A program made the position numbers and the translations under genes. Positions 9,428 through 34,077 of a stretch of DNA of 64,000 nucleotides are shown here, in pieces. The stretch lies in IMG/VR virus record IMGVR_UViG_3300021400_000134; one strand, written 5' to 3'. Each line of letters begins with the position of its first letter. Within the stretch, counting starts at the first letter, position 1. This stretch comes from a virus (Duplodnaviria; Caudoviricetes). A model generated the notes under the pieces. The model was given only the letters and a program-made list of their open reading frames with translations, was not told the origin of the DNA and ran no database searches.

Positions 9428-12400
9428 ATGCCAAAACAGATAAATGTTAAGCTAGGTTTTGAGGCTGATACCTCGCAAGCGCGAAAACAAATAGCTGATT
9501 TGCAAAAATCGTTAGATGGTTTGTTATCTAGTTCTATTAAACAAGGTGCATTAACCGGTTTTGATAAAGAAGTATCTAATGCACAACAGTCAGTCTTAAA
9601 ACTAAAAACCGCAATTGATAATTCATTAAATGCGGATACGGGTAGATTAGATTTATCAAAGTTTAATACACAATTAAATAATTCTGGATTGACTCTTGGC
9701 CAATTATCTAAGGATATGAATAACTTAGGGGCTGATGGTCAGAAGGCATTTTTAAATTTGGCAAATAGTATTGTAACCGCCCAAAAGCCAATGGCAGAAT
9801 CTAATAAACTATTGGATAATATGTGAACTGCTTTAAAGAATACGGCAAGATGACAGTTGTCTAGTAGTTTATTACATGGATTTATGGGGGCGCTGCAAGG
9901 TGCATATGGATATGCCCAGGATTTAAATAAATCTTTAACTGATATTGCAATCGTTACTGGAAGGTCTACCGATCAAATGGCGGCGTTTGCAGAACAAGCG
10001 AATAAATCGGCGCAAGCATTAAGTGTCAGTACCACAGCTTATACTGATGCTGCTTTGATTTACTATCAACAAGGTTTGAGTGATGATGAGGTTAAAGCCA
10101 GAACTGACATTACAATGCAAATGTCGAACGTAACTGGAGAATCAGCTGAACATGTATCTAGTTATATGACAGCTATATGGAATAACTTTGCGGAAGGCAG
10201 TGAAAACCTTGACCATTTTGCAGATGTTATTACTGCGTTAGGTGCGAAAACTGCTTCTAGCTCAGAAGAAATCGCTAATGGTATGCAACAATTTGCGGCT
10301 GTAGCAGATACCGTAGGATTAAGTTATGAATATGCAGCAACCGCATTGGCAACTGTTGTAGCACAAACTCGTCAAAGTGAATCTACTGTTGGCAATTCAT
10401 TTAGAACAATTTTTTCAAGGTTACAGGGTTTGAAACTTGGCGAAACTCTTGAAGATGGCACCAGCTTAAATAAGTATTCTAAAGCTTTAGCTACTATTGG
10501 AGTTGATATTAAAGATCAAAATGGTGAACTTAAAGAAATGGATACTATTTTGAATGAAATTGGTGCTAAATGGCAAGCATTAACGAAAGATCAGCAGGTA
10601 GCATTGGCACAAACCGTTGGTGGCGTTAGACAATATACTAATTTAATTGCGTTATTTGATAATTGAGATGCTTTTCAAGAGAATTTACAAATTGCAAACA
10701 ATTCTGATGGTGCTTTACAGCAACAGGCTGATATATATGCTGAAAGTTGAGAAGCTGCTCAGAAAAGAGTTAGAGCAGCTTGGCAGGCTATTTATCAAGA
10801 TTTAATTAGTGATGATTTTTTTATTACTATTCTAAATGGTCTTGAAGCCATATTACATGGAGTTGATGGATTAATTGATTCTCTTGGTGGATTACCAGGA
10901 GTACTAAGTGGGATTGGTGTATTGGTAACAAGTGTTTTTAATAAACAGATTGTAGAGGGTTTAAAAAGCGCGCAGCAGCAATTAAAAGTATTTACAGGTA
11001 CAGCTCAAGCAGAAAATGATGCGATGGTTGCTTGAACAAATCAGTACTTACAAAATAATAGAATAAAAGATATCGCTGGAACCGGTGATATCCCATACGA
11101 AGATTTAGAAAACGGGTTATTAAAGCAAAAGCTTGCATTAACAATAGAGTTGCGTGAAGTATATGATGGTTTAAATGACATACAAAAGCAATACGCTAAT
11201 AGTCTATTAGAGTCTGTTGAAAACCAGCAGAGATTAACTTTAGAGGCTAAAAAAACAGAAGAAGCCACAAGAAGGTCTCAAGAAGATGCTATGAGATCTT
11301 TAAAAAATTCCGCCATACAGGGTGAGAATAATAAAATGATGAGCTTTTTAAATCAGTTTCGTTTAGATAATGGTCAGTTTGGTGGTGAACAAACAAAATT
11401 TGAACGAGGAATAGAAAAAATTGCATCTGCGGGAACTGTAAAACAACAAGAACAAGCTTATAATGAATTATATAAAGCAATGCTTAAAGTAAGTGATGGT
11501 TCTAAAGAAGAAGCAAAACTTATTGAAAATGTAATTAATAAAACTTTAGAACATGTTCAAGCTCAAAAAGAATTTACTAATCAAACCGAAGTTTTAGATA
11601 ATGAAACTGATCAATTTAATCAACGTTTACAAGAACTTGTTCAAAGCCATCATAATGGATATTTATCTACTCAAGAATTAATTCAGGCACTAGAAACCGA
11701 AAAAGCTAAATTTGATGAAACTTCAGAAGAAGCAAAAAAATTACAAATTCAAATAGATAAATTAGAAAATAGTAATAAAGGTGTTTTTGGTCCAGAATTT
11801 GCTCAATCATTTGTTAATACTACTAAAGGTATATCTCAATTGTCGATGGGATTCAATTCTTTAAAAACCGCCTGAGATACTATTCAAAATCCAGATGTAT
11901 CTGGATGACAAAAAGTAACTTCTGTTATTACTTCTTTAAGTTTTGGAATACCGGCAATTATAAATGGATTTAAAAGTTTAGGCGGGCTTAAATCCATTTT
12001 ATCTGGAATATCCAATGTTTTTACTGTTGGAACAAAAGCAAAAATAGAAGAAATTAATCAATTAGCTATTGCAAATGCAAAAGCAGCAATATCTCAAATA
12101 GAATTAACTAAGGCTCAAGCAGTCGGAAATTTAGTTCTTGAAGGATATGATATAAATACTGCTGAAAATATAGTAAATACTAAAATATTGGCACATGAAA
12201 AAGAAATATTAGCAGCAAAAGAAAAAATGGTTAAAGCTGGTCTAGAAGGTACTAATGCAGCAGCTTTAGCAAGTAAAGCGGCAATGTGAGAATTGTATCT
12301 TGTTATTGGTCTCGTTATTGCTGCCATTGCTTTATGGAATAAACAAGAAAAAGATAAAGAACAGGGATGAAAAGATCAAGATAAAGCTATTCAAGATACT

Positions 12401-15400
12401 ACGGAATCTGCAAAAAAATTAATTAATGCATATGATGAATTAAAAAATAAATTAGAAGAATTACAGGGGAAGAAAAAAGCTTTAAAAGATTTAGAGAAAG
12501 GCACTGAAGAGTATGAAGCTGCTGTTGCAGCTTTAAATGCTCAAATGCTTGAATTAATTAAAACATATGGACTTGTAGAGGGTAAAGATTTTGTTTTTAA
12601 GGATGGTGTTATTGATTTTACTTATGATGGCAATAAAGCCATGGAAACAAAGGCCAGGGAACAAAGACAAACTGGATATGCTAGGCAAATGGCAGCTCTC
12701 ACCACTTCAGATTCAAGCGGAGACAGAGCAAGAGACGATATTCAAAGAATAGTTTCTTCAAAAATTGAGGGCATTAATAGTAATAATCAAGAGGCTTTTT
12801 CAGAAGCATATTTAAAACTTTTAGATTCAAAAAGTATAAAAGCTTTAGCTCAAACTGATTTAACAGATAAAGGTTTAGTTGAAGATCTTTTGGGTCAGTT
12901 AGGAATTACTGGAGATGTTCAAGCTGCTTTTGTAGATTTAATTACTTCTAATGGAGATTTACGTGGAGCAATAGAACAACTTTCTGGTTCTATGCAAGAG
13001 AATACTGCAGCTCAAGCAGCAATTAAAGCAGGAATATATGATAGGTTCGGTAGTGATTTAGATAATCTTTCAGCAAATTATTTAACAGATAAAACCCAGG
13101 AACTTTATAATGAAAATTATGAAAAAATGGGAGATATAACAGAAGAAGACTATATCAGAGCGGGTTATAAGAAAAATTCTGATAATGAATGAGAAGATGA
13201 GAATGGCGTCGTTCAAACATTAAACGATGAAATGATTCGTTCTCAATTAGCCTATTTAGATGCGTTAAATCAATTAGATGCTCAATATAAAAATAATTTA
13301 GATACACTTACTGAAGAAGCTAGACAGCATGCTCAAGAAGAAGTTTCTAATAATTTTAATAAAGAATTTGGTTCAGATGCTTCAGATGAAATTGGTGCTT
13401 TAAATGACACTGAGCTTTCTGTAGCTTTGGATACAGATTTGAGTCAATTTCAAACTGTAAAAGAAGCTATTGATTATATCAAAAAAGCAAGTGAAGAAGA
13501 ACATAAAATTCCATTAGAAATTAGTACAGAGGGATTATCTCAATTTAAGGGAAAAGAAGAAGAATTAAATGCAGAAATAGAAGAATTTTCTGAGTTTTTA
13601 AAAAGAAATTATGAAGACTATGAAGGTCTAAGTGAACATATAGCAGAATGTGACGCAGCAGCAGATGCGGCTGCAGCTTCTTTTATCCGCTTTGATGATG
13701 CAATGCAAGACGTTTCAAAAAATTATAAAACATGAAAGAAAGCTCTAGATAGTAAAGATATAAAAGAAGTAAATGATGCAGTAAAAGATTTAAGAAAAAC
13801 TTATGCTAATTTATTAGATTTGGACGGTTCACAAATTTCAGAAGATTTTTTAAAAAGTTCTAAGAATTTAGATTTATTAAATACTGTTTTAAATGGTACT
13901 GAAGAAGAGGCAATTGCGGCTTATGAGCAACTAGAAAAAATACAAGCAATAGAATTTGCTAAAGATATAAGTCCAAATGTAGATATTGATGCTTTTTCTG
14001 CGGCTTATGATGAAGTTGCTTATTGAACGGATCAAATGCGACTTAAGATGGGAGATGACTTTGTTGCTGGAGATGTTAATTATCAAAATATTGTTGATGG
14101 TTTAAATGCAGCATTAGCGACAATGTCAATGACAAAAGAACAAGCTGATGCATTGATGAGGAGTATGAACTATTCCGGAGAACTGCAATTAATGCCAGTA
14201 AATACTACTGATGTTGATAGTAAAGAAGACGCTATTGCAAATGTAGAAGAAGTAGATGTTCCTGCTCAGTCAATTCATATTGAAACTTCTGATACAGACT
14301 ATACTCCAAGCTTAGGAGAAATGATACATGGAACAGTTTCTTCTGTAATGTGAAATAAAGGCGGACTTTTAAATACAGTAAAAAAAGTAGCTAATACGGT
14401 TCAGTCAATGCGTTGACAAGTTGCCGATGGTTCAACTGTTCATTATTTAGGTGGAGCTGCCCCAAAAATTAGTAATATGCCAGCTAGAAATATTAGCAAT
14501 GGCGGTGGAGGCGGCGGTTGTTTTGCCGCAGGCACTCAAATTATTTTAAAAAATTTTCAAAAAAATATTGAAGATATTAAACCAGGTGATTTAGTATTGT
14601 CCTATAATGAAAAAACTCATAGAAATGAATTTAGTAAAGTTATTCAGACTATGATTCATAATGTTTATGAAAAAATATATAATTTATTTGTTAAAAATGA
14701 TAAATTGGTAGTCACTGGTAATCATAGATTCTTAGTCATTCATAATAAAAAACAGCAATGGATGCCAGCAGAAGATATTAGAATTAATGATTTAGTACTT
14801 TTATCTTCTGGAGAATGATGTAAAATTTCCAATATTGACACTGAGAAAAAGTTCTTAACCGTATATAATTTTGAAGTTTCTAATACACATAACTATTATG
14901 TTGGCGAAAATCATATTTTAGCACATAATAAAGGTGGTGGAGGAGGCTCAAAACCTAAAAAGAAAAAAGTTGAGAAGAAAAAAGAGCCAACTAAAAATAT
15001 TAAAGAAGCTGACCGTTATCATAATATAAAAGAAAAAATTGAAGACCTTAATACAGAAATGAAACGCTTAAATGAAAATAAAGATCGAGCCTATGGTAAA
15101 GACCGTATTAAGTGAATGGATGAAGAAATAAAGAAAACTGAAGAACAAATTAAATTAACTGATGAATATATAGATGAAATAAAGAACTATGCTAAAATTG
15201 ATAAAGAAGACTTAAAAAATAAACTTGGTTCATTTATTTCTGATGCTGACTTTGATGAAAATGGCGTTTTAAAAGATTATGAAGGTCTGTTGGCTAAGAT
15301 TCAAGGTGCATTTGATAATAAAGTCACTGCTGCGTTAAATAAAGCAACAGATGAATATAACGCTGCGGTTGATAAATTTAATGCTAGTGATCAAGAAGAT

Positions 15401-17938
15401 GATGCTACTGAAGAATTTGAAAAAGCTAAAGAAGCTTGAGATAAAGCTAAAGAGACTTATGATAAAGAAAAAGAAGCTTATGATGAAAGATTAAAATCAT
15501 TAAAGCAGTATGAAGATACAATAAATCTTTTACAAGAAAAAGAACAAGAACGCATTGACCAATTAAATGAACTTTATGATAAATGATTGGCTAGAACAAC
15601 CTATAAAGTTGAAATTAGTTTAGAAATGAATGAAGATGATATGAATTATCTTCAGTGAGTTTATGATAATTTAGGTGATAGTGCTGATAAAGCTGCTGAT
15701 AGAATTAGTTTATTAAGCAAGCAGATGAAAACTACCCAAAAAGATATTGCTACCTATAAGAAAGGTATTGAGGAATTATTTGCTCAAAATGGCATGAATG
15801 TTGATTTGGGTGATGATTTAAATGGTACTCAATTAGGAGAGCGTTTAGACCAATTAATTCAAAAGATGCGTGAGCAAGGTGGAGAACCTAATATCCAAGA
15901 GGTTATTGACAAATTAAGCGAATATCGCGATGGCCTCATGGACACTTATGATACAATGCGCGACTTAGCGGATGCCGCAACTGAAAATGTGGTAAACGCA
16001 TATGATGAGTGGAATGAGCGTCTCCAAGAAAATCTTGACCTAATGGATCATTATGATTCTGTTATTGATACCATTAAAGAAATTGCGGATTTACTTGGTG
16101 AAGATCAATTAGGTTTAGGCGACGAACAAGCCAAGGCTTATGAACAAGCTAAGTTAGATAATCAACGCAATGCCGCAGCTATTGCTAAAGACAATTATGA
16201 TGCCATTGCTAAAGAACGCGAAAGGGTTCAGAAATTATTAGAAACTTCTGAAAGTGAAACCGAGAAAAAACACTGGGAAGAAGTTCTTAAAAATCTTCAA
16301 GAAGCTGAAAATGAAGCAATGGAAGAATATCTATCCAGATGGAGAGATGCGCTTCGTCAAGCAGAAGAAAATTACCAAGCCAGTTTAGCCCGTAACGAAA
16401 AAGCTTATCAAAAAGCCATGAGTGGCGGTATGGGAACTCTTGATATGCTTCAAGAGCAATTTGACCGCCAAAAAGAGTTAGATGATTTATATTTAGATGA
16501 TTATGAGAAATATAAGAAACTTGGTGATATTACCTCAAAGATTAACAAGAATCTTGTAAATAACCCAAGCCCAATGATTCAAGAAAAGATGAAAGACCTT
16601 CTTGATGATGTTAACGCTAAGATGGAAAATGGCGCTGATATATCAGAGGGTGAAGCCACAATTCTTGAAAAGAGATTGGCTTTATTAGAAGCAGAAGACC
16701 AGTTATTAGCAGCACGTAATGCCAAGAGCGCAGTTAGAATGACTCGTGATAATGAAGGTAATTTCAGCTATACTTATACAGCAGATACCTCAAAGATTGA
16801 GGAAGCTCAACAGAACTACGCTGATAAATTCTATGAACTTTTGGATTATGAGAAACAATATTCTGATGAAACTCAGGGCAATATGTTAAAGTCATGACAA
16901 GATTTTATTAACAAACGTAATGAAATTTTGGAAGACGATATGTTAAGCGAAGATGAGCGCAACAAAGCTATGGAGCGTTTGCAGGCTGATTATGATAAGA
17001 TGGTTGCATATTATAGCGATGAACTTAATATGGTCATGGAGGAAATGAGCCGATTAAAAACTGATGATTGAAAGGATATGGAAAATATTCTTGGTAGATT
17101 ATTAGCCGGCCCAGAAGACTTTGAAACTGATTTAAGTAAAACTACTTTAGGTCAATTAACTAATGCTTGAAATGACCCAGAAGGTATGGCTAAATCTTGG
17201 AGAGAAGCAGCTGATACATTGTATACTCAAGATGCTGATGCGCGAGCTGCTTGAGTTGCCGCAAATGAAGAAACCAATAGAAGGGTAGATACTTCTACAA
17301 AAGAGTTTGCGGAGAATTATAAATCCACTCTTGGAGATATTGTTGAAGCTAGTGATGAGGTTGCAGAATCAGCCGAAAAGATGGCTGAAGAAATGCCAAA
17401 GGCTATGACCGAAGTTTTGAATGAAGCTGAAAACTTCTTTAACGAATTTGGTAACTATATTGACACATTATTTACAAATATTCAAAATATTGTTAAAGCA
17501 ATTAATGAGTTAAAAGATGTGTTGGCTGGAGTTGATCCTGAATATAGAACAAGTATTTTAGGAGACAAAGTTTCAAAAACTGCTGATTATGAATTACCGG
17601 TTAAACCTGTATCCGGTGCTACTGGAATGTACACTGGTGAATGAGGTGCTGGTGGTAAGTTAGCAATTCTTCATGAGAAAGAATTATTGTTAAATGAGGC
17701 TGATACTCAAAACATTTTGAAGGCAGTAGATTTTGTTAGAAATATGCCACAATTTGGTGGAGTGTTGAATATTAATAATAATGTAGATTATTCTAAACTT
17801 GCGGCCGTCGGTGCAACCGATCTACAACAGCAAGTTCATATTGATGCTTCATTCCCGAATGTGGAATCACATACAGAAATTGAGTTAGCTCTTAATAATT
17901 TAATTAATTCAGCTAGTCAATATGTTAATAGAAAATAA
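9428..17938 (+). CDS. Tape measure protein (2836 aa, code 4) containing a Hint domain
   Basis: Twelve track ORFs share one frame, separated only by TGA (more than 20). TP901-like TMP core at about 9900-10700; hydrophobic stretches; long coiled coils; C-terminal TGMYTGEWG..GKLAILHEKELLLN motif. Confidence 0.9.
14519..14929 (+). other. Hint (intein-like/BIL-type) domain, 137 aa, no endonuclease
   Basis: Block A CFAAGTQI, IEDIKPGDLV, block B VVTGNHRF, block F VYNFEVSNTHNYYV, block G LAHN. The +1 residue is Lys; flanked by Gly6 and K-Gly5. Confidence 0.9.
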
Positions 17939-18052: not shown

Positions 18053-21000
18053 ATGGCAGATTTAAATGCGAATAAAGTTGATGATATGCTTGATGCGTTA
18101 AATGAAGCTATGGAAATTCATGCTCAAAATGCAATTAAGAATTTATCATTTAATAAAACTGAATTAGCTGAAGTCGTTGATATCACTCGCCGCAATGAGG
18201 GTTGATATATTGTATGAAATGGCTCAACTAGATATATGGCATTTTCTGAAAATACTTCATACAAAATGGGGATGAAAGTATATGTCAATATCCCAAACAA
18301 TGATTTTAGTAGTCAAAAAACTATTATCGGTCAATATAAAGAAGATAGTGAGCAGGCTGTTTTCTTTAGGTCTCCATTAGACGGGTTTTTACCATTGACA
18401 GATAATATTTTGGAGAATAGCTCTACTGCTACTGGAGAATTCTGTTTATTGGCTAACTGTAATAAAGAAACACAAGCTTTTGGAAAGCAGTCTCTTGAAA
18501 TTTATCGAAATAATAGTATGACTTATACCGAAGGAGAAGGCGCCAATGAAAAGGTAGTATCTCCATATAGTGGATATAAATATATTGGTATTTCAGCAGA
18601 AGTTAAAACCTTGTTAAAGCAATTTGATACAGTGCAAGGAGATTATGGTATTAGAATTGTTTTAGAGGGTATTCAAAAGCTTGACGTTACTGAAAATGCG
18701 GAAACAGTAAAAAGAGTTTATTATTTAGATTCTAAAAATATGATTGGTGATATTTATAATTTTCCAGTATATTTTAAGCAAGAAGCTCTTTTTAATATAG
18801 AAGAATTCGATACCTTAAGCAGAATTATTGTTGGTATTTATCAAGGCGGAAATTTTAAAGATATTGGTAATGAAAATATTCCTTATAATAATAATGGATT
18901 GGTTTCTGATGGAACTGGTGTACAGTTAATTGGTGATGATTCTAATAATTTGTTGCCAGACAATATCTTTATAAAAAATATTTCCATAAGATTTGGCGAT
19001 GATGATACATCAAGAAAAGATGTAGTTAAATTATCGACATTAACTGGTAAAACCTATGATAGTGCGCAGACAGATTTGTTGAATAGAAAAACTATTGATT
19101 TAGAATGGCTACACACTGACCCAAATACAGAGAAGAAAATTAAGATTACTTCTCCAAGTGATGTAAGTGCGGATATAGGTATTGCTAGATATGTGATACA
19201 TTGATATCAAGATTCAATACATTCAGCAACTGATTATAACGCTATTTTAAAAGCAGGTGAAGAAGACAGAAATTTAAAGTTAAATCTTTATGACAAATGA
19301 AAGAATTCCCGTCCTACTGATCCAGACGAGTTAGCGCAATTAAAGAATGAATTAACAGCTAGTTTTAATTTAACCTCAAAGAATGATTGACAAACTAGTG
19401 GTGAATTAACTGAAACTGGGGTTAATAAAATTAAATCTGCGCTAAGTGCGGCAAGTCGAACTTCAGTCGCCGTAGACACATTAGCTGGTGCCTTTTGGCA
19501 ACCTATAAACAATGGCACTAATCGATTTGAGTTGAAAAGTTTCTTGCCAGATTATACAAGAGCTTATTCAAAGATTAAAGTTGTTATAGAGTATTGAGAA
19601 GAAGCTGGTAACGATGACACTTATAATAAAGTTGAGAGTAATGAGCTTCAATTTGATAATTTAAGAGAAGTGTTATCAGTTGATAAAAATTCGGGATTAA
19701 AGATTGGGTTTGATGATAAAACAGGTGGTAATTATCCAATTTATGATGGAATTACAGGACATTTGTTAAGCAGATTAGAAGAATCAAAAACCAGAGGATT
19801 AACTGCTACTTTTTTAGATGAAAAAGGTAGAGATTATTTTAATGGGAATGAAACTATAATTTGAAAGATTCCTATTGGTGGGACAATGATATTATTGGGA
19901 GACAGTTTTTATTCTAATAGTGAAAAAATGTCTGCCAATGATACTGTTTTCAGTGATTATGATATAGATTACGAAAATGGTTATATATATATTAAGCGAG
20001 AAGCCATTAATAGCACCGTTCCAGTTAATTCAAAACAATCTTATCAAATAGCACCATATTATAATATAGGATTTACTTCCAATACAGTATGATGTTATGT
20101 TATAAAAAATAATCAGTTATATTCAACTAGCGCAACCATGACATTTAATCAACATGGTACATGCGGAACTGATTATACATTTACACTAGGACTAGGTCCA
20201 AAGATAATTGATGAAACTCCTGACGAAACTGGAGCAGAGCAGATATGAACTGTAGTAGGGCCATCAGATACAGCTCTTACTATTGGAGATACATATGATG
20301 GAAAACCTGCTTACCATGAAATTTTATTTAACTTATATAATGCGAAAAATGAGCCAATTGAGTTGACAAGAGAGCAAAAAAATGTTATAATAACATCATG
20401 GAATAATCATACAAGTAATGGTTATTACACAGGTCAAACAAATGCTCGTCATTTACAATTTATACTAGGAACTGGAGACAATGCTGGACGAATTATTGTA
20501 AGAGCGCCAGATAGAGATATTGAAGATTTCCAATATATTGTATTTCAAGCGTTTGTTACAAGCGATGTATTAGATGAAAATGATGAAAAGCTCTTGGATA
20601 AAGTCAACTTTGTTCAGTATTATCCGCTACATATTCGTGAAAAGAATAGTGATTGAGAATTAAATGGTTCTGATTATATTGTTTATGATGATAAGGGCGC
20701 AAATCCTACTTGTTATAACGATAAATTTGAATTAATATCTAAAGCGGATGGTACACAACCAGAAGAGTTATTATTTAAAATAATTACAGATGATGTTGAG
20801 ACACCAGGAAGTACCGATAATAGTCCAGAAACTTATTATCCAAGAATTGTAAACGGGAAAATACAGCCAACTCCATTGTATATAGGTAGTATTTCTAAAA
20901 ATGTTGCCTTAATTGGAACAGTTGCAACTGGAGATAATTTAAGAATTGCTTACACATGTCCAATTGTTATTATAGAAAATAAATATCAAATTCCAGCAGT

Positions 21001-22360
21001 GAATAACTGGAATGGTGATTTGCAAATTGATACTCAGGGCAATAAAATTTTAGCTTCTATGGTTGGTGCAGGACATAAAGATGAGCATAATACTTTTAGT
21101 GGAGTGCTCATGGGAGATGTCCAATATAAGGATGACTATAGTGGCGAAGATATTATTACTACTGGATTATTTGGTTATGACAAGAGTGAACAAACTTTTG
21201 GGTTTAATATAAATGGGCAAGCATTTATTGGTAAGTCTGATGTTGGTAGAATTTATGTTGATGGTAATACTGGACGTATTACAAGTGCTGCAAGAGAAAG
21301 TTATGATATTAATAAGGCTAAGGGGGTAACAGATAATGACCCTCGTGGTACTGAAATTAATTTAAAAGAAAATTATATTGATATTCAAGGCGAAAGTACT
21401 AGTGTTGCTGAAGATACTAATAAGTCTAGAATTCATATTGATACTGCAATTAGACCCAATAATCAAGGTGGTACTAATGCATATTTTTCAATAGATAGTA
21501 ATAATGGCAAGCGATTAATTCATATTGCTAATGATGAATATTATTTACAAACAGAGGATTACCCTTCTAGTCAAATAGAAGTAATGACTCAAGATGGGGG
21601 AACAACTACTGTTACAAGACCGTCAGGACTAAAGATAGATTTAAAAAATGGTAGCTTTGATTCTAAAGGTAAATTAACCATTACCGGTAATAGTGAATCT
21701 AGTATAAATTTTGGTAATGGCACATTTAAAGTCGATGGAACTGGAGAAACTACTTTATCAAGTTTAACTTTTAAAAATCCTAACACTGGAGTTGTTCAAG
21801 CAACTGGAATCAAACCACATTGAATGACTTTTGTTTCTGACATAAGTGGAAGTGTTACTTTGCAAAAAGTTACTGTTACTATGGACAATATTCCTGTACC
21901 ACATACAACAGTAACAAATAATTATAACACATATACCACTTACAATACTGCTGAAGGGACAACAACATTTAAATATGTAAATAACACTACTGCTGGCATT
22001 ATATCAAATTATGTTGATGATGTAGTAACTGGAGATGTTACAGGACAAATAACGGGAGATTTTTCTCCTAGTGCAAGTCCAAGATTTTATAATCATAGCG
22101 CTACAGTGCATTATAGTTATACTGTTGAAACCCCAGTGGTAGAAGGCCCATATAAAACTACGACTACAGATACCGTTTATGTAGATGGCAAAGGTTCTAC
22201 AGATGTACCAGTTGTTACTGCGATTAATTTTACGATAAAAAAAGTCTCAATGTGGGCTTTAACAAATGATACCGCACAAACAAAAACTTATTCTATTAAT
22301 GCAAAAGGAGATGCTAGCTATACTGGCGAAGCCATTGTCCGTACTATGACGGAGGTTTAA
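18053..22360 (+). CDS. Large tail tip/central spike-like protein (1435 aa, code 4)
   Basis: Six track ORFs in one frame, gaps contain only TGA; Gly-rich beta-strand repeats in the C-terminal third; follows the TMP. Confidence 0.7.
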
Positions 22361-22361
22361 T

Positions 22362-22631
22362 ATGAATATAAAAGAAACAATACAATTTGAAAATAATTTA
22401 TATGAATTAATTAACACTTGTGGTTTACCAGTAGATACAGCATTTTATGTATTAAAAAGTGTTTATTTAGATTTTCAAAAAACACTTTATGAATGCGCAA
22501 ACAATGAAGGTGAAACATATACTACAGAAGAACAGGTATATAAGTTATATAATGAGGAAAAGGAGAATGAAGATGAACAATCAATCAGTACAGATGCTTC
22601 AGAATATTCTGGAAGCGTTAATGACGATTAA
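22362..22631 (+). CDS. Small hypothetical protein (89 aa)
   Basis: SD ggagg; coupled to the upstream gene. Confidence 0.6.
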   Translation: MNIKETIQFENNLYELINTCGLPVDTAFYVLKSVYLDFQKTLYECANNEGETYTTEEQVYKLYNEEKENEDEQSISTDASEYSGSVNDD

Positions 22632-22761
22632 TACAAAGGGTAATGATACAATTACAATGAGCAATGTTTTACAAGCATTACAAAATGTAATTGATGTGGA
22701 ATCTAGAACTGGGGCTGTCGCACCTAAGACTCCAGAAATAGAACCTATTACAGAAGAGTAA
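22573..22761 (+). CDS. Small hypothetical protein (62 aa)
   Basis: SD aaggag at 22560-22565 favours ATG 22573 over the track start at 22489. Confidence 0.55.
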   Translation: MNNQSVQMLQNILEALMTINTKGNDTITMSNVLQALQNVIDVESRTGAVAPKTPEIEPITEE

Positions 22762-22776
22762 AAGGGGGTAAAAAAT

Positions 22777-25700
22777 ATGGCAAAATTATATCCTCCATAT
22801 ATTGAAGGAACATTGCCAGCGTTTTACTTAAATAAGAATGGGGATGGCGAATTAGTCATCCCCTTTGCTCATAATCGTGCCTTAGTAAGTAAAGAAGAAA
22901 TATCTTCTTTTGCTATAAAAATTAAGTCGGTACAAAATGATGTGTTGTATGGCGATGTAGAAGTTGGTGCGAATTGAGAAGGTAATGAAGTAAAGTTTGA
23001 AGTTAATAAATTTAAAATTGCGGAATTAGAAGATTTAACTTTTAAAATTGGACAGTATTACAAAATTCAAATGGCATATATTGATAGAACTGGTATTGTT
23101 GGATACTATTCAACTGTTGGTGTTGTTAAATGCACATCAGAACCAGAAGTTAGTATAATGAATTTTGACGAGAATAAAGTTAATAATAATGCCGCAGAAT
23201 TTATAGGACTTTTTAAACAAGCTGAAGATGGTGATGTTAGTGAAAAAGTTTATTCTAGTAAGTTTATAATAACTGATTTAGAAGGTAATGAAGTTTTCAG
23301 TTCTGGAGATATATTACATTCAATAGAAAACAACCCAAATTCTTACGAGTCTCAAGATAGTGTTTATTTTAACAGAGATTTGGAATATGGTGAAATATAT
23401 AGAATACAATATATAGTTACTACAACTAATGGTTTAGTTATATCTAGCCCAAAATATCTTTTAACTCAGCAAAAATCTATTTATATGGAATTAAAGGGTA
23501 AATTAGTAGCAGATTTAAACTATGATGAAGGATTTGTTGATTTAAAGATTGAGGGCGCTAAAAATGAAAATGGTGCTGAAGAAATTATAGATGGCTTGTT
23601 TATTGTATCAAGAGCTGATACTTTGAACCCAAATGTTTGAGAAGAATTAACTAGATTTAGTTTAAAACATGAATATCCATCTAGAACAATCTTTAGAGAT
23701 TTTACTATTGAACAAGGTAAAACTTATACCTATTCATTACAGCAATATAATGCTAATGGAATTTATTCAGATAGAAAAAAATCCAATGAGATATTTGCGG
23801 ATTTTGAAGATATGTTTTTGTATGATGGTGAACGTCAGTTAAAGCTGCGTTTTAATCCGCAAGTAAGTAGTTTTAAAACCCAGTTAGCAGAAACTAAAAC
23901 AGATACTATTGGTAGTAAATATCCATTCTTTTTTAGAAATGCGCGAGTTGGTTATAAGACATTCCCAATTTCTGGATTGGTGTCAATGTTAAGTGATGAC
24001 AATCAATTTTTTACATCATATAAAGAGATTTTAAGAGAAGATACTAAGGCTGATAGAGAATCTACAGCCGCAGAATATACTAAAAAATTATGACCACCAA
24101 TTATGGATAAAAATACTGACTTGGTTTCTGATAATTTTGTATCAGAAAGATTGTTTAAACTAAAGGTTTTAGATTGGCTAAATGATGGCCATGTAAAATT
24201 ATTTAAATCTCCAGGAGAGGGAAATTATTTAGTTAGATTAATGGACAATTCTTTAACTCCAAATACACAAGTTGGTAGAATGCTACACACAGTAAATGCT
24301 ACAGCCTATGAATGTGCGGAATTAAATTATAAGAATCTAATAGATAATAGAATTGTTAGGGAAGTCCAATTGCGCGATGAGGACACTTATGTCCCAAGCT
24401 GGAGAGATTTTACTTTAGACAATGAATGATTAAATGAAAATACTTTAAAACCTGTTACCGCAGCCAAAAAGGGCAGTAATATGATTTTAGGTGCGTATGT
24501 AAGTTCACCACAACTATTAAGTGATATTAACTTGCTTGATACAGAAGATGCGCCGGGTGCATCAACAACAATGCTAAGGTTTTTAGACTGCTTACCAGGA
24601 GACAGAATTAGATTAGTATTTGATACTTCTGGAGCAAAAGAGGCCAAAGATCATGTTGACATTACTATTGGTGCAACTGGTAATTACATGGCAGATGATT
24701 TAAGACCAGTTTATGGTATTTATTTCTTATCTGATATTGGTTATGGTTCAGATAGTAACTATAATCGTAGTGGCTTTCCATCAATTAGTTATCAATATAA
24801 TATACCTAATAGAACTGCTTTTAGGTCTATTGAAAAAATTCAAGCTGATATTGGTGGATATAATCAATTTGTTGGTGAAGTTCCAAATTTAGTTAAGCAT
24901 TTAAGTTATACTAGAGAAGTTCCTACTAAATTATGCTTTTCAAGATATTTTAAAAGACCTGTTGAGTATTTATATTACGCAACAGATGAAATACCAAATG
25001 TTATAAGTGGAGAAGATATATTTGATGGGACTTATGACTATTGGGGATATAGAAATTTAACAGAAAAGTATGCTTATCGTTTATCTTGGGATGTATCTAC
25101 AAAACATCTTTCTCAAGAAGAAAGAGAAGAAAAAATGAGAAAGTATACATTCCAAAAGACAAAAAACACAAATGGTTTAAATGAAGACTGGTGAGAAGTA
25201 CAGGATTGAGCTAGATATTATGCTCAGGTACAAGCTTTCTTAAACGGAGTAAATCCAGAAGATTTATCTCCAGAAGAATTAGAAGATCTTTATTATCCAA
25301 AACAGTGATTAATGTATTATAAATCAGTTGATAACGATAATTTATTACCGACTTATGCTGATGTTTCTGCTCAAATAGGAGGTGGAAATAATTCAGATAG
25401 ACATATTCAAATGATAATACAAAAATCAGATGGGTCTTGAACCTCTCATGGATCGAGTTGTTCTCATGCATATAATTGATTTTTAGATAGTTTAGAGCCG
25501 GGAGAGGTGGCTTATGTTTGGAAACCTACTCTTGGAGATGAAGAAGTCGCATATCACACAGACCAAGATGGAAATACTATCATTGACATGTCTGCCTATA
25601 AAGGAAGAGAAGAAAGTCCAGAGTGGTTTGATGACCAAGAAAGTTTACAGTATTCTCCATTCTCTTTATATGTTTTAAGAAATCAATATATTACAACACT

Positions 25701-26310
25701 TGATGGTGTTAGACAAAATATATTTAATCATTTACCGACATCTTTACCAATAGAAGAAAAAACCCATGTTGTTAACCATGCTTTTGAAAGATACTATATT
25801 GATAGATATATAAATGCGCAGACACCTGAAGAGATGCTTGAAGAGCGTACTTTACTTGCGCAGCAACTTGCCGCAGATGGAAATAATGAAGAAACTGCTG
25901 CGGTAGATGCAGCAACTGCTTTATATGTACTAGATGCTTGATACGGAAAAGTATATGAAGTAGGTAAAGATTTTATGTATGATCCATCTATTACATATAA
26001 TAATGAAAATATTGATTTGCGTGAAATTGATAGATATGAGTTAGAAGCTCTAGAGCCAGATGAAACAACTATTAAAGTTGGTAATGGGGTTTATGGGGAT
26101 GTATATTACCAGAAGGTAGAGCAAACATTCTCTTATGAACCAGAAGAGTATAAAAACGCTTGAGAGTCTGCGGTGGCCGCTGCAAAGATCGCTTCACCGG
26201 GATATAAAGAAGAAGCTGCAGAGCGAGCTGCATATAAACTATTAAATGATGGTATTGATGCTGAAAGAGAAGCATGACAAAAATTAAGAGGCGAGGAAGA
26301 GGAGGTATAA
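22777..26310 (+). CDS. Baseplate/distal-tail-like protein with Ig/Fn3-like segments (1177 aa, code 4)
   Basis: Seven track ORFs in one frame; FRDFTIEQGKTYTYSL, KTDTIGSKYPFFFRN and KVLDWLNDGHVKLFKSPGEGNYLV motifs. Confidence 0.65.
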
Positions 26311-26313
26311 TTT

Positions 26314-28746
26314 ATGAAAAACCCAATGTTAGATGAAGTGTTTTTACATGAATTAGACCAGTTTCAGCACAAGTTTATCTGAGCTAAAATTATCGCCTTA
26401 AATTGAGATGAATATCCATTAGAAGAGATTACAGGGCGTATTACAAGTGGAAGTATTAATATTGATGGTGCTTCTGCGGTAAGACGTACCTGTAGTCTTA
26501 CTCTCGCCGCAAATGAAGTCAATATAAATAATTTTTATTGAAGTCTTAATACTAAGTTTAGAGTAGAGATAGGATTGGAGAATTGAATAAATCCAGATTA
26601 TCCTGATATTATTTGGTTTAAGCAGGGAACATTTATAATATCCACATTTAGATGCTCTGCTGGAGTTAATAATTATACAATTAATATTCAGGGTAAGGAT
26701 AAGATGGTGCTATTAAATGGAGAAGTTGGTGGTGTTGTTCCAGCTTCATGAGATTTTGGCACAGAAGATGTAACTATGGAAGATGGAACCATTCAAAATA
26801 ACCCAATTCCTATTAAAGATATTGTTTTGCAAGCCGTTCATGAATATGCGCAAGAGGGTTGACAGAATATTATTGTTAATGATTTAGACGATTATGGCAT
26901 TGAGCTTTTGGAGTATGAAGGTGGAACGCCGTTATATTATATAATTCAGTATGATGGAGGCGCCAATGATTCGAGAGAAGTTGTTAATATGACTTTAAAA
27001 GGTGATATGCCTTGTTGGGTGCGTCAAGATACTTGGAATAATGGTAGACAGATTGGCGACAGATGAATTGCAACAACAATTTCGGAGCTGGAAAATGCTG
27101 GGGGAACGGGAGGCACATCCAGTGCCGGGCGGCTCTGTTATGAGAAGTTGATGGAGCAGCTTGATCCTAGCGGCGCAGTCACGGAAACTGCAAATTATTT
27201 GCGCGCAGTGGTAACACTAAAAGATCCAAATAGTGGTATAACGGACGAGGATTTATATACTATTGCGAAAATAACAAAAGATAATGGATTGCAAGTTTGC
27301 GGTTATCGCATTTGTGATATTATATATCCTTATGATTTGATTGCTTCTCCTGGCGAAGCATTAACATCAGTTTTAGATAAATTAGTAAAGATGCTTGGTA
27401 ATTTTGAGTATTTTTATGATGTTGATGGAAGATTTATTTTCCAGAAAAAAAAGACTTATTTGGATGTTTCTTATAATAATATTTTAAATGAGCATTCTAT
27501 AAGTGAAGAAGTTTGAGCAGATAATAGCGAGTTTAGTTCAAAATATTCTTATACATTTGATAAGGATACTCTCGTATCTTCTTTTCAGAATAATCCTAAT
27601 TTAAGCAATTTAAAAAATGACTATTCTCTATGAGGACAAAGAAAGCAGGGCGATATTGAAGTTCCTATTCATATGCGCTATGCAATAGATCATAAACCTG
27701 TTTACTATAAAACTTGAGATGGTATAGTCTATATTTCAGAACAGGGTATGCAAAAATATGGAGAAATTGGTGATGTAGTTGATTGACGTGAATTAATTTA
27801 TCAAATGGCAAATGACTATCGTCGTCATTACAGAGATGAAGATTTCTTAATTACCTTAAGAGATAATAATAAAATAGGTACAGAATATTTATATCCAAAA
27901 GGTTATACTGGATATGAGAAATATTATATTGATTTTGAAATGAATCTATCTCAGGGTATTGTAGCCTATTGGAGAGAATTATATAATCCAGATGTTAGAA
28001 ATAGTGAATTAAGAGATGAAAAAGTTCATTACCAGCAAGTAAAAGACAAAGTTGAGATGATAAAAGAGTCTGAGTTAGAGGATTGAACTCCTTCTAAAAT
28101 ATATTCTAAATCTGATTTAGTTAGATATAAAGATACTTATTATCGTTCAATAGCAGACAATAATCAAACAGAGCCGCAATCAAAAGAGGCTAAATGAGTA
28201 AGTGACTATTATGTAGTATATAACTCAGACGGTTGGAATCTTGATATTTTAAATAACCCAGAAATGTTAAATTTTTGATTTGATTTTTTAGATACTGATG
28301 GATTTTTAAATAGATATAGCGTTTGTAATATTGGGCAAAGGTCAAAAGCCGCTAATGATGATAAGATAAAAGCCATATATTTTAGAGAAACGCCAAATGT
28401 AATTTTTGAATTGGCTGATGATATTAGTCAAGCAAATTGACGTAAACCTGGGTATGCGCATATTCGTATTCCAAAGGGTTTAGATAATATGTTTTCGATT
28501 AGCTCAAGAGGTAAAAATGCAATGGATGTAGTACAAGAATATCTTTATACTTATACTTATCCAGTTAGCGCAGTTACTTTGAATGTAGTTCCTATCTACT
28601 ATTTATCACCAAATACCTTGATTTATGTAGATGATGAGGCTACTGGAGTTGTTGGCGAATATATTATGCAAAAATTTTCATTCCAGTTTGGCGTAACAGC
28701 ACAGATGACAATAAATGCTGTTGAAACAGCGAAGCGTATATATTAA
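26314..28746 (+). CDS. Tail hub/Tal-like protein, DUF5048-like (810 aa, code 4)
   Basis: ITGRITSGSINIDGASAVRRTCSLTL, IWFKQGTF, GKDKMVLLNGEVGG and C-terminal VPIYYLSPNTLIYV; CBM5/12-like insert at about 28084-28200. Confidence 0.7.
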
Positions 28747-28761
28747 GGAGGAATTGGAGTA

Positions 28762-29097
28762 ATGGCAAAGAAACTGCTACAATTTCGCTACAAGGTAAAA
28801 GGTGATGAATATAATTATCCTAAGACAGCTGATGGAGAAGGCTTTATTAGCGGAGATGTTTTTTCTAGCGTTATGCCAATTTCTCAGCTGGGTATTCAAG
28901 CATTACCTGGTACGAAATTTTATTTAAATGGCGCAGTAAATCCAATAGTAATAGGTGTTTCAGGAATTTATGATTTGGATATACGAAATGGTGCTAGAAT
29001 TACTAATTTAAGATTCTCAAAGGAGTCAATAGAGAGAATAGAAGGAAGCATTGGCGGTTATTTGATCGTTGATGTATTATATGGAGAGGAGGATTAA
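28762..29097 (+). CDS. Small baseplate-region protein (111 aa)
   Basis: SD and intact ORF. Confidence 0.7.
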   Translation: MAKKLLQFRYKVKGDEYNYPKTADGEGFISGDVFSSVMPISQLGIQALPGTKFYLNGAVNPIVIGVSGIYDLDIRNGARITNLRFSKESIERIEGSIGGYLIVDVLYGEED

Positions 29098-29100
29098 GAT

Positions 29101-32100
29101 ATGGGCTTTTATGGTAATATAACTAATATTAATAAAACTACTTTCCAGTTTGATAAAATTTATCCAAATCGTAAAGAAATGGACGATGCTTGCGCCGGTG
29201 ATGGAGTTTTTATTGGTAGATATGTTTTAGTCGATTATAACGAAGATTCTATTCTAGGATATGTTCATGCGCAAATTGCCGATGAAAATTTAAAAAATAA
29301 GCCGGTTGTTGTTGGATATCAGGAAAAAAGAGAAGATGAAAATGGGAATGTTGAAATATTGGCTGATAGATTTTATAGTGGCATTCCAGAAGTTACAGAA
29401 GATGGCACCGCTATTAAAACTGATAGGTTATATAAAATTGGGGAAGAGACCAGTGGTTCAACTGTTGCTCCAGATACTTTACTATTAAGTTTAGGCTATA
29501 TTTCAACAAAAGTCGAAATAAAAAGAGAAGGCGGTACAGAAGAAGAACCAATAGAGTCAATTCATTATATTATTAATGGTATTGAAAATAATAATTTTAA
29601 TCCTCAAATTTTTGTGGCTAGAGCTCCTGCTGAAGAGGGCGAAAGTGCAGATTTCCTTCTTTTAAGAGATATTGACAGTATTTGGGATTGGAATAAAGGA
29701 AGGTTCTTTATAAATCATCAAATTGATGCTACCTCTTATGGAGAAAGTAATATTGGTAGGGGTTGAGATTCTACTGTATGACAAAAGGTCTATAAAGATG
29801 GTACACCTAGTTATGTAATGGTAGCAGAGTTAAATTCTGTTGTACCTACATTTGACGTTGTATCGGATGCGCCAACTGTAATTCCGCAAAAGCCATATTA
29901 TGATGCAGATTCTTCAAATGTATATTATAGATTACATATGCAGCCATCTTGAGGATTACGTGTAAAAGCAGATGAGGACAAAGATTATTCTGATGGAGTT
30001 GTATTGCCATCAGATGTAAAGGGCCCTTATGAAAAACGCTATAATTATACGGAAGATGAAGATTTGGCTATTTATTGATTTAAAGATGGTTTTAATAAAT
30101 ATATTGAAAGCGTTTCTGAATATAATGAAGATATTGTTAAAATGTCGCCCACTGGAAAAAGTGGTAATACTTATTACGAAAATGGCACATTTGGGCAAGA
30201 AAAAATCGATACTTATGAATTAAGTATGATGTTACCTTCAATTGGTCAAGCAGTTTCTAATTTATGGGATATTGTATATGGTAAAGGTACTTATACAGAT
30301 ATTTTAGGAAATACGCTATGAGATAAGAGTAGAACAGATTATGATTTTGTCTATTCTAAAAAGCCAGTAGAAGGTGATGAAGATTCAGAAGATATTAAAA
30401 TTAGAAATACTGCATTAGAATGAAATACTCGCAATGGCGCAAGAGCATATTGAGAATATGATTCTGAAGAAGAACGTAAAATTACATATAATAAAGAAGC
30501 GTTAAATACATTAGCTGGTACAATTAACTCAGCGCATGATTTAATGGGAATGATTATTATAGAAAATGATAATTTATTAAGCAGCGATAGTAGCCTAAAA
30601 GCTAAAAACGCAGACCCAAGTAATATTTATTATGATAAAACAACTAAAAAATATTACAGAAAAGGAAAGAAATATTCATTTTCAGGTAGCGCGCCTATTG
30701 GTATTAGTGGTTCTAATATGTTTAATCCAGCAGATGGAAATCATTATAAGTTAGAGTCTTATGCTTATGATAACTATGATAACATTTATGCAGAAGATAA
30801 GGAATCTGATACACCTAAATATGAGCAAGTTGTTAATAATTATTATAAAGTAAAAAATACCGATATTCTTTTTGAGAACGAGGTTTATGGAACTTTAACT
30901 TCAAGTAAAATAAATAATTTTAGTCCAAAAAATTATGATCCATCTGGGGAAGAAGAAACAGATTTCTTATGGTGGCGTTGTACTGATCATGCTTTACCAC
31001 ATTATGTGCACGAAGTTGCGGAAACTCCAGCGCATGGTTCTTATTATAAGATAACCGCAGAACTTACTGCAGAAAGGCCAACATTCTATACCCCTAAAGT
31101 TTATTATTTAATGAAAAATAGTGAGCTTGCAACAGTGCAGGAGAGAGAGGATTGGGAAAATCCAGATAAAACCAATTTTAAACAAGCAGATTTTAATTAT
31201 TTGGGGATAATGAATGATGCTACACTAACGTCAGCTTTGGTTAACAATGGGATTAACCTAAATGATGAAAATAGAACCGTTGGTTATAGAATATTAAAGG
31301 GTGTTAGTGTAGACCCATCTCGTTCTGATTATATCTTAGTAGATATTAATAGACGTAAAAATGAAGAAACATTAACAACTGACTCTAATATTACACAAAA
31401 TGAAGATGGTGCTTTTGTTTATCAGTGAAATAATTTAGAAGCAACTCTTCAAAGCGTGGATACTATTGTTGAAGAAGTAACTGTAGAAGATGAGGTTCAA
31501 TATATTGAAAAATATCAATATGATATTACAGTTTTTAGAAGTCCAAGTCATACAGCTTTAGGTTCAAAGACTTTAAAAGAGTGGAAAGAGTATATTGAAA
31601 ATCTAGATAATCATGTTACAATAGAGAATTTCAGTGATTTAATTCCAGACATGAATTTTGAAAGAAGAATTACTGACCCATTCTATACACTTGACCGTGC
31701 TACAGATGTTACCAAGATAATTAAAGACCTTGTTCAAGAGAACGGCATTGCAACAACAGGATACTATTTCTTGTATGATGAAACAGCTGCGGCTAGAGAA
31801 GATATTCACGATGATAATGGTCAACGTTATTACGAACCAATTATTAATCCTAATAGCACTCAAGCAGAGAGTTCATCTTGATACAAATTAACAATTACTC
31901 CAGTACCAATTTATTATAGTCTAGATGGGCAATACTATATTAAAAATAATAATAATTTCTTAAGAGAAACTGCTTCAATTCTATTCTTAGAAGAATTGGA
32001 AGAGGGAGAAAAACCTTCTTATTATACAGTTAGCTTTACTCCAGAAACAAAAACTCCTTTTGTTCCTGGGTTATATTACACTAAAACTGGTAATGAATAT

Positions 32101-34077
32101 ACTATAGCTAATACTTTTGACTCTAGTAAGACATATTATAGATATATTGATAGATATGTTTCAGCAGATTCATCAGGTATTTATGATGTTGGTGCTAAAT
32201 GGAATGAAGATATAGTACCGGTACCTAGTACTGTAACGGTATCTGGTAAGACATTTGAATGAGAATTCCAAGAGATTCCAGATTTTGCAAAAGATGTTAA
32301 TACATTACATGGTTTGATTTTAAAAGTTAATGAAGTATTATTATCTGACGATAAAGTTACTAGAGATAATAACACAGTTCAAGGATGTATTAATCTAATC
32401 AATGATATTCTTGACAAATTCGATCAATTAAAGCCAGCAGAAATTGTAATGGTTGATACTTATGGTAGAATCCATAGTGGCGACTGAAGTAGTGAACAGA
32501 AATTCGGATACAGTAATATTGGTAAACCAAGTGCGGATCTTGCTGTGCCGACCGGAGATCCAGTTGCCGCAGATAATGAGCGCTGACTAAAATTAACCAC
32601 ATCTTCTGGAATTAGTAACAATGGTTATAAGCCTCATATCAAATTGGAACATACTTTTAACAAAGTTGAAGATACTACTACTGTTGCAGATAAAAATAAT
32701 ACAAATGGAGATGGCTTAAATAAAGGCAATAATGATGAATTAAAGTTATATACTCCAATAGTTGATAATACAGGTCATATTGTTGGAAATAATATAGAAA
32801 CAGTCACATTGCCTTATAATTTTAAAACTGTTAATGCAGATACAGGTAGTATAATTGCTGAAAATACTTTAGATAATTTTGGTATAAAAACTGCTGATAA
32901 TTGATTAAGTACATCTGTTAATAATAAAAATGTTTTAATTGCTCATGATAATCCGCAGGCTGTAGAAGCTAGAACGATTGAAAATCAAAAATTGCATTTT
33001 GGAAATAGTTTTACTGTTGAAGATTGAAGTTTTGATGCTAAAGGACATAAATCTCGTGTTGATACTCATACAGTAACAATTCCTAATTTAACTATTAGTG
33101 GAAATGGAAATCTTATTGCCAATGCAGCCACTAATGCAGAGGGTGATTTAACATTAACAAAGAATAATGTTGGAGCACTTGCTTTAACTGGATATAGTGC
33201 GATTTCAAATGAGGTTACTCCACAAGCTCCAACCGCTGAAACAACTGTGAATAATGCAATTGCCAATATAATGAGATATCTTGGTAATGGTAGCTTAAGT
33301 GCAGAAGTAGAAGATGGAAATGAGGTTGTTACCGGAATTAATCTTGCTAATGGTGCGATTACTTTAGAAAGTACGCAACTTGGAACTGCAGCTTGACAAG
33401 ATTCAACTGCATTTGATGCAGCTGGTACTGCTGCTCAGGCTAAGGCCGATGTTCTTGGAGATGCGGCAACCGCGACAGCATCAGATAATACTCTTGCCGG
33501 ACTAAGAAAATATATTGTACAAGAATTTAATAATGTTACAAATACAGGTAGCTTCTGAGGCGCCCAATTTAAATATGACAATAGTGCATATTCTAGTACA
33601 AATCAACAAGAGATTCAAATGCAAACTCAAAATGATAGAAGAGCTCTTGTACCTTTAAGTAATAGTGATGTAATTACTTATGGTAGTTTTGCTCAGGATA
33701 GTTATACAGTAAATACAAATGGTGGCATAGCAATAACTTATGCTGGACTTTATAGAGTTCAGGGATCCATTGCAGCTTCTTTTGGTAGTGGAGTATATTC
33801 GGTGAAAACTTGGATAATGAAAAGTAATGATAACTATGAAAATCCAGCTGTTATAAGTAGTGCAACAGAATCTTTAGATGAGGATAGTTTATCTGGGGGT
33901 GTTTTCTGCACTGGTTCTAAATTGGTTCAATTACAAGCTGGAGATGTTGTTTATTTAGCTTGTACTATAACTCCTGGACAAGCAGGAGGAGGAGGAGGTT
34001 CTAGTACTATTACTACTGCAACCATTCTCTATGACAACCCAGGAACATATTTCTTACTAGAAAGAATTTCTGCTTAA
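29101..34077 (+). CDS. Long tail fibre/baseplate protein with C-terminal C1q/BclA-like head (1658 aa, code 4)
   Basis: Six track ORFs in one frame; the C-terminus ITYAGLYRVQGSI...LVQLQAGDVVYL...TYFLLERI fits the C1q/TNF-like pattern. Confidence 0.7.

Follow-up and report, generated by a model that had tools for sequence, protein, structure and literature searches.

The tape measure protein (TMP) encoded in a 64,000-nucleotide stretch of DNA from a Caudoviricetes virus (IMG/VR record IMGVR_UViG_3300021400_000134; the whole stretch is called the window here) is interrupted at a glycine-rich hinge by a 137 amino acid Hint domain. By comparison with its homologs, this element is probably a heritable, dispensable, self-excising intein-like passenger in a permissive hinge, and not an essential maturation protease. 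TMPs set the length of the phage tail and help to open the host envelope, and since more than 100 giant TMPs carry the module at this conserved hinge, self-processing of this kind would be a widespread feature of phage tail assembly. The type of domain is known; its host protein and context are new. The gene and the parts of the domain, which is of the type-A bacterial intein-like (BIL) kind, are as follows.

9428..17938, + strand: TMP gene, recognized by its translation table 4 open reading frame (ORF), Pfam PhageMin_Tail and PHROG families
14501..14518, + strand: N-side Gly run G1692-G1697, ahead of the predicted scissile Gly1697-Cys1698 bond (translation; comparison of 116 TMPs)
14519..14929, + strand: type-A BIL / PT-HINT domain of 137 residues, Cys1698-Asn1834, no endonuclease (PT-HINT score, 2LWY match, AlphaFold2 and Foldseek)
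14519..14521, + strand: codon of Cys1 (C1698), predicted nucleophile of the N-S acyl shift, invariant in 141 of 141 unique copies
14714..14725, + strand: block B T-G-N-H (T1763, H1766), in which both the Thr and the His are present in all 141 copies
14861..14902, + strand: block F VYNFEVSNTHNYYV, with its Asn and a conserved His; V115, N117, E119, V120, H124, N125 and Y126 invariant
14924..14929, + strand: terminal His1833-Asn1834 (block G), predicted site of Asn cyclisation, invariant in 141 of 141 copies
14930..14932, + strand: Lys1835 at +1, Lys in 141 of 141 TMP copies
14933..14965, + strand: C-side Gly run and basic tract GGGGGSKPKKK, the remainder of the hinge (translation; comparison with Hint-less relatives)

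The Hint domain (CFAAGT...TGNH...VYNFEVSNTHNYYVGENHILAHN) lies between NGGGGGG on its N side and KGGGGGSKPKKKK on its C side. Re-translation gave exactly the lengths stated in an earlier note on this DNA, namely 137 residues for the domain, 1697 for the part on its N side and 1002 for that on its C side, and it confirmed that Cys1, the block B His (TGNH) and the terminal His-Asn are intact and that Lys occupies +1. The account of the flanks given there also held: two hydrophobic segments (19-residue Kyte-Doolittle mean >1.6) lie at residues 482-504 and 946-971, both in the N part, and the C part is acidic (isoelectric point 4.5; D+E 21.8%).

Searches with hidden Markov models from Pfam placed the domain above the PT-HINT cut-off of 27.7 bits, both within the whole protein (47.7 bits) and in isolation (52.3 bits), a match well outside what chance would give. 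The Intein_splicing model (cut-off 35.8) was exceeded by the isolated domain only (48.1 bits), the whole protein scoring 30.9. Its best relative of solved structure by sequence is the BIL domain of C. thermocellum (PDB 2LWY; E-value=2.3e-12), the alignment running from end to end and including the motif VYNF..H.Y..LVHN. An AlphaFold2 model built on 35 sequences (pLDDT 90) forms one contiguous all-beta fold without an endonuclease insert, in agreement with the first reading of the sequence, which had seen no homing endonuclease. When this model was analyzed using Foldseek, 2LWY was again the best match (target-normalised TM-score, TMt, 0.91; root mean square deviation 1.5 A), followed by Tetrahymena BUBL BIL2 (6Y75/6TMM; TMt ~0.8) and then by mini-inteins and the Hedgehog autoprocessing domain. 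Since PT-HINT score, 2LWY sequence match and fold match agree, the domain shows every sequence and fold hallmark of the type-A BILs and, as far as sequence and model go, is a type-A BIL / PT-HINT (PF07591) domain. Its position in a variable region of the host protein, a Gly/Lys/Ser hinge which differs in length and sequence among relatives, is also that of a type-A BIL.

A homolog search with TMP residues 1640-1900 as the query indicated that a Hint domain in a TMP is not a rare oddity. The same domain is present at the same hinge in 116 giant TMPs (1.6-4.7 thousand residues; contigs up to 334 kb), 92 of which contain one copy, 19 two and 5 three. Among the 141 unique copies C1, F2, T6, T66, H69, W81, N117, E119, H124, N125, Y126, L134, H136, N137 and Lys+1 are 100% conserved, and Gly+2 is conserved in 97%. 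The eight residues upstream of the Hint are 64% Gly across the 116 TMPs, with Ser or Gly at -1. Tandem copies are arranged head to tail and are joined by KG (10 junctions), KGG (8), KGGG (4) and similar linkers; all 29 internal junctions retain HN, Lys and Cys1. Paralogous Hints within one protein are only 52-71% identical, whereas identity rises to 97% between copies that hold the same array position in related proteins; it follows that the arrays are ancient and have been passed on stably.

The last 537 residues of the TMP served as the query in a search for the C-terminal module. By similarity, Hint-less TMPs were interleaved with Hint-bearing ones: P0122 (68% identity) and P0123 (55%) lack the domain, and P0007 and P0008 (72%) possess it. 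When presence and absence of the Hint were mapped on a tree of the N-terminal TMP domain with 205 leaves, at least 14 changes were required, against ~68 with shuffled labels; the Hint has therefore been transmitted mostly vertically, yet repeatedly gained or lost. A second tree, built with IQ-TREE, covered the part that aligns with the C-terminal module, Hints having been trimmed off where present. Here the Hint-less P0122 groups with P0001, P0007 and P0008 (SH-aLRT 99), within the Hint-bearing clade to which the window belongs. The P0122 gene is complete and lies on a contig of 31 kb, and the gene following it specifies 1420 residues, as compared with the 1435-residue ORF which follows the TMP gene in the window.

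All TMPs of this giant family have a low-complexity hinge rich in Gly and Lys. The hinges of the Hint-less relatives are unbroken stretches of Gly, Lys and Ser (for example GGGGAGKKSSGGGGSK, GGGGGKKGGGGGGKAKK and SSGKSGGGGGGGGGSKKKT) in which a Gly run is followed by SKKK or SKPK. They are placed as in the Hint-bearing TMPs, ~30 residues ahead of a conserved DRYHNIKE motif (DRYHNIKEKIEDLNTEM). Since the hinge is continuous in these proteins, the two Gly runs of the window TMP are one linker split by the insertion, as the earlier note had surmised. Judged from these alignments the Hint domain is dispensable for the TMP, and it is optional: inherited in clades, tandem-duplicated in some, and cleanly lost in others, which then resemble hinges that were never interrupted. 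It is on account of this optional character that the Hint is read here as a passenger and not as an essential protease.

Type-A BILs possess a terminal His-Asn and no +1 nucleophile, form a thioester at the N-terminus and are cleaved at the C end by Asn cyclisation (PMC4031507, PMC7664689). Although cleavage products dominate, the amine of the freed C-fragment can attack the thioester, thereby ligating the flanks (PMC4031507, PMC7664689). Following this biochemistry, the TMP Hint would fold post-translationally, after which Cys1698, aided by Thr1763 and His1766, would turn the Gly1697-Cys1698 peptide bond into a thioester. Asn1834, aided by His1833 and His1821, would then cyclise with breakage of the Asn1834-Lys1835 bond, and the 16-kDa domain would thereby be freed from the TMP. 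Because the residues for both steps are invariant, we infer that the Hint excises itself. The flanks would either be left as two fragments (1697 and 1002 residues) or be rejoined through attack of the Lys1835 amine on the Gly thioester; the chances appear roughly even, with a slight leaning towards rejoining in the native Gly/Lys context.

If every TMP chain kept a folded beta domain, the tail tube would be unlikely to hold it, so its removal is probably the property under selection. Three considerations speak for complete self-removal, rather than a single cut, as what selection has kept: sister TMPs without the Hint work with a continuous hinge, HN, Lys and Cys1 have survived long divergence at 29 of 29 internal junctions, and a detached 1697-residue N fragment would lose its tether to the tip-anchored C end during polymerisation of the tube.

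A number of points weigh against self-excision of a passenger. For every member of the family, processing is a prediction, as is what becomes of the flanks, and the published BILs mainly cleave, which by analogy favours the two-fragment outcome (PMC7664689, PMC4031507). Conservation of the catalytic residues would be expected under passenger and adaptive readings alike. Other globular domains can occur in TMPs, the argument from tube fit being reasoned from established knowledge. A separate protease might cut the Hint-less hinges, in which case the Hint would be the equivalent built-in cutter. Finally, the homolog sample was gathered by Hint-based plus C-terminal-based searches, and its proportions of Hint-plus to Hint-minus proteins are biased.

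The earlier note had proposed that the TMP cuts itself into two. The intact BIL/PT-HINT domain and the lack of a +1 nucleophile are in keeping with this; cleavage, however, is only one possible outcome, as type-A BILs can rejoin their flanks (PMC4031507). The same note went further and suggested a built-in maturation protease, that is, a dedicated enzyme which cuts at both ends without religation and is required for tail maturation or for release of an injected fragment. This we consider unlikely. Its predicted products are an N fragment of 1697 residues with membrane-type hydrophobic segments, the free Hint, and an acidic C fragment of 1002 residues with a new Lys N-terminus. The absence of a +1 nucleophile and the predominance of cleavage among BIL domains (PMC7664689, PMC4031507) would suit it, but a pure cutter in an array needs the first Cys1 and the last Asn only, yet the 29 internal junctions are intact at 52-71% identity. 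Also in its favour, both hydrophobic segments found lie in the N part, and some related TMPs contain a second BIL-type Hint (+1 Ala or Ile) ~110-125 residues from the C end. In phage lambda, the trimming that turns gpH into H* takes place near the C end, a position which would resemble that of this second site. Close relatives nevertheless lack the Hint and have an unbroken hinge. Nor did the homologs include a naturally split TMP whose C module is encoded by a separate gene beginning at the hinge, a further point against the protease; the shorter matches started at internal Met codons or were fragments of contigs or gene calls. By analogy with other tailed phages, the C end of a TMP should lie at the tail tip, and the N fragment left by such a protease would be untethered from the tip while length is being measured. 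With Hint-less TMPs such as P0122 interleaved among the Hint-bearing ones, and arrays keeping the catalytic residues of both ends, the built-in protease is the less likely reading.

The Hint would make a Gly thioester, and it is improbable that this is captured by a lysine side chain, in chemistry akin to the ubiquitin-like conjugation by BUBL BIL2. Capture in cis by the epsilon-amine of Lys+1 would yield a TMP linked through an isopeptide; capture by a lysine on another TMP chain or tail protein would yield a covalent cross-link. Like the C-terminal GlyGly of ubiquitin, a thioester of Gly is reactive and unhindered. Lys+1 is found in 100% and Gly+2 in 97% of the 141 copies, even where the 'C-extein' is KG alone before the next Hint, and a run of Gly stands upstream. 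This setting, with Gly after the invariant Lys+1 and the Gly run ahead of Cys1, would be suited to direct aminolysis of such a thioester. The second-best structural match, Tetrahymena BUBL BIL2, is reported to form an isopeptide between a Lys epsilon-amine and the C-terminus (PMC8616854, section 2.4). Because of this precedent and of the Lys+1-Gly context, lysine-based ligation or cross-linking is a live possibility. It is, however, a possible chemistry by analogy; Lys is also the commonest +1 residue in unrelated Hint proteins and may merely aid Asn cyclisation or folding, and the confidence of the model near Lys+1 is low (mean pLDDT ~57 at residues 151-160). More tentatively than self-excision as such, one may suppose that Lys+1 and the Gly flanks define a nucleophile-free 'lysine-ligating' Hint which excises itself and rejoins the giant protein by aminolysis, through a Gly-Lys peptide or an epsilon-isopeptide, possibly between TMP chains. 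If so, it would represent an efficient, naturally occurring form of protein splicing in which Cys, Ser and Thr are dispensed with.

The frequency of Lys at +1 was taken from an exhaustive representative search (16,362 proteins at E-values up to 0.001). In 199 full-length domains among the top matches the +1 residue was Lys (49%), Ala (11%), Arg (9%) or Cys/Ser/Thr (8%), and Gly was also seen. Tandem arrays of the form HN/KGG/CF, with up to seven copies, occur in unrelated proteins as well. Lys+1 and arrays are thus traits of a wider Hint subfamily which have been fixed in the TMP branch; from these alignments Lys+1 is not special to the gene in the window, being invariant in the TMP subfamily and the commonest +1 residue in the wider Hint family.

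Class-1 inteins carry Asp at the block F position where the Hint has Asn. That the domain is a decayed ordinary intein or a sequencing error, its canonical +1 Cys/Ser/Thr having been lost in this one genome, is scarcely credible and was rejected: 48 bits to Intein_splicing on the isolated domain and the patchy distribution among TMPs would fit, but the copies at this hinge have Lys and never Cys, Ser or Thr at +1 (141 of 141 unique copies, 116 proteins), which effectively refutes it, block F contains Asn and not Asp in every copy, as in the BIL 2LWY, and the insertion site is a low-complexity hinge and not a conserved active site.

Several known systems bear comparison. With the type-A BIL 2LWY the TMP domain shares the mini Hint fold of ~137 residues, Cys1, block B TxxH, the terminal His-Asn, the Asn of VYNF in block F, the lack of a +1 Cys/Ser/Thr and of an endonuclease, and a variable low-complexity host region (Amitai 2003, Dassa 2004 and Aranko 2013, as cited in PMC4031507 and PMC7664689). 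It differs in that its host is a phage TMP and not a secreted or polymorphic-toxin bacterial protein, and in its invariant Lys+1, Gly+2 (97%), Gly runs on both sides and tandem arrays, in which a single hinge holds two or three copies; its activity is predicted. BUBL BIL2 (PDB 6Y75/6TMM) likewise follows a Gly-ended segment, and it is reported to pass its N-flank to a lysine epsilon-amine (PMC8616854); it is, however, eukaryotic, has ubiquitin-like flanks and is ~27% identical to the TMP Hint, the likeness being one of sequence context and predicted fold. Canonical class-1 mini-inteins have in common with the TMP Hint the fold, Cys1, TxxH, His-Asn, a presumed need to leave the host protein, and sporadic presence among orthologous host genes (here at least 14 changes on the 205-leaf tree, with P0122 nested). 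They have Cys, Ser or Thr at +1 and are inserted in conserved functional sites, whereas the TMP Hint has Lys in 141 of 141 copies, Asn in block F, a non-conserved, low-complexity hinge as its site, and tandem copies. The conversion of lambda gpH to H* is similar in that a TMP is perhaps shortened or cut post-translationally; the lambda cut is not made by an internal domain of the TMP, and no internal segment is removed.

True inteins have been listed in actinobacteriophage TMPs (bioRxiv 10.1101/2025.01.02.630785). The searchable full-text literature yielded BIL and intein reviews and this preprint, but nothing that described a BIL/PT-HINT domain at the hinge of a TMP. Should the flanks rejoin, Lys+1 and poly-Gly would represent a natural, scar-small form of splicing without a nucleophilic side chain, of interest to intein biochemists and protein engineers; should they stay apart, this would be, as far as the literature search showed, the first autoproteolytic two-piece TMP.

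The window has a G+C content of ~29-39%, and TGA must be read as Trp. With translation table 4, nucleotides 9428-17938 of the + strand form a single ORF of 2836 residues with 24 in-frame TGA codons; with table 11 they fall into fragments of ~100-400 residues. The product contains a PhageMin_Tail domain (Pfam, 103 bits, residues 189-399) and matches several PHROG tape measure families (best E-value=1.8e-60). The genes upstream have matches among the 'virion structural protein' families of PHROG, in its head-and-packaging category; downstream are very large ORFs and a protein with a Phage_tail_C tail-tip domain. By its family domains and its position in the tail module, the 2836-residue product is a phage TMP. 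Four very large ORFs 3' of the gene (18053-34077; 1435, 1177, 810 and 1658 residues) had no Pfam match at an E-value of 0.001; presumably they belong to unknown families of tail-tip or baseplate protein.

One of the TGA codons lies within the Hint domain:

14816..14818, + strand: TGA codon specifying Trp1797 (Hint position 100); the gene has 24 TGA=Trp codons in all

This codon had been thought to tie synthesis of the domain to recoding, a special link which is rejected here. The earliest TGA=Trp of the gene is codon 133, and because 24 such codons are spread from there on, synthesis of the Hint is no more dependent on recoding than that of the rest of the protein. TGA=Trp is also used across the whole TMP of an IMG/VR relative (L003; 59% identical). 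The column at Hint position 100 is Trp in 63% of the homologous copies. ORFs 476-1201 and 1220-2341 contain no TGA, the TMP gene 24 and the giant downstream ORFs 11-17 each; use of TGA=Trp is therefore uneven across the structural module.

The second Hint site of related TMPs is occupied in P0121 (residues 2587-2734), P0056 (3132-3278), P0127 (2582-2728) and P0130 (2322-2468). It lies ~110-125 residues from the C end, directly ahead of a conserved GGYTG.WG...LHxxE motif, and its +1 residue is Ala or Ile, neither of them a nucleophile. A counterpart of this C-end site is absent from the TMP in the window.

A tblastn search of the Hint domain against deposited phage genomes returned distant Hints only (<=35% identity), none of the annotated ones in a TMP; they belonged to helicase, ribonucleotide reductase and portal inteins or lay in hypothetical proteins. 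In cultured Ruminococcus phages (Ca. Heliusvirales), Hints ~29-33% identical occur in unannotated hypothetical proteins. The records are L001 (NatCom_28775, PV036440.1) and two sisters, and in two of the three there are three matching places each.

Alpha-2-macroglobulin-like bacterial proteins P0119 and P0120, the latter labelled Candidatus Bipolaricaulota by NCBI, contain a PT-HINT domain with the flanks GGG/CFAAGT...HN/EKGG, a Gly-run context which resembles the TMP hinge. Arrays were seen in several proteins other than TMPs: P0235 possesses seven copies, P0275 and P0331 four copies with a Tim44-like domain, and P0228 subtilase and PKD domains with four copies. Since they occur in many such proteins, tandem Lys-linked Hints are a general architecture, apparently unstudied. 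P0335 combines two Hint copies with Phage-tail_3 and is thus another phage tail protein.

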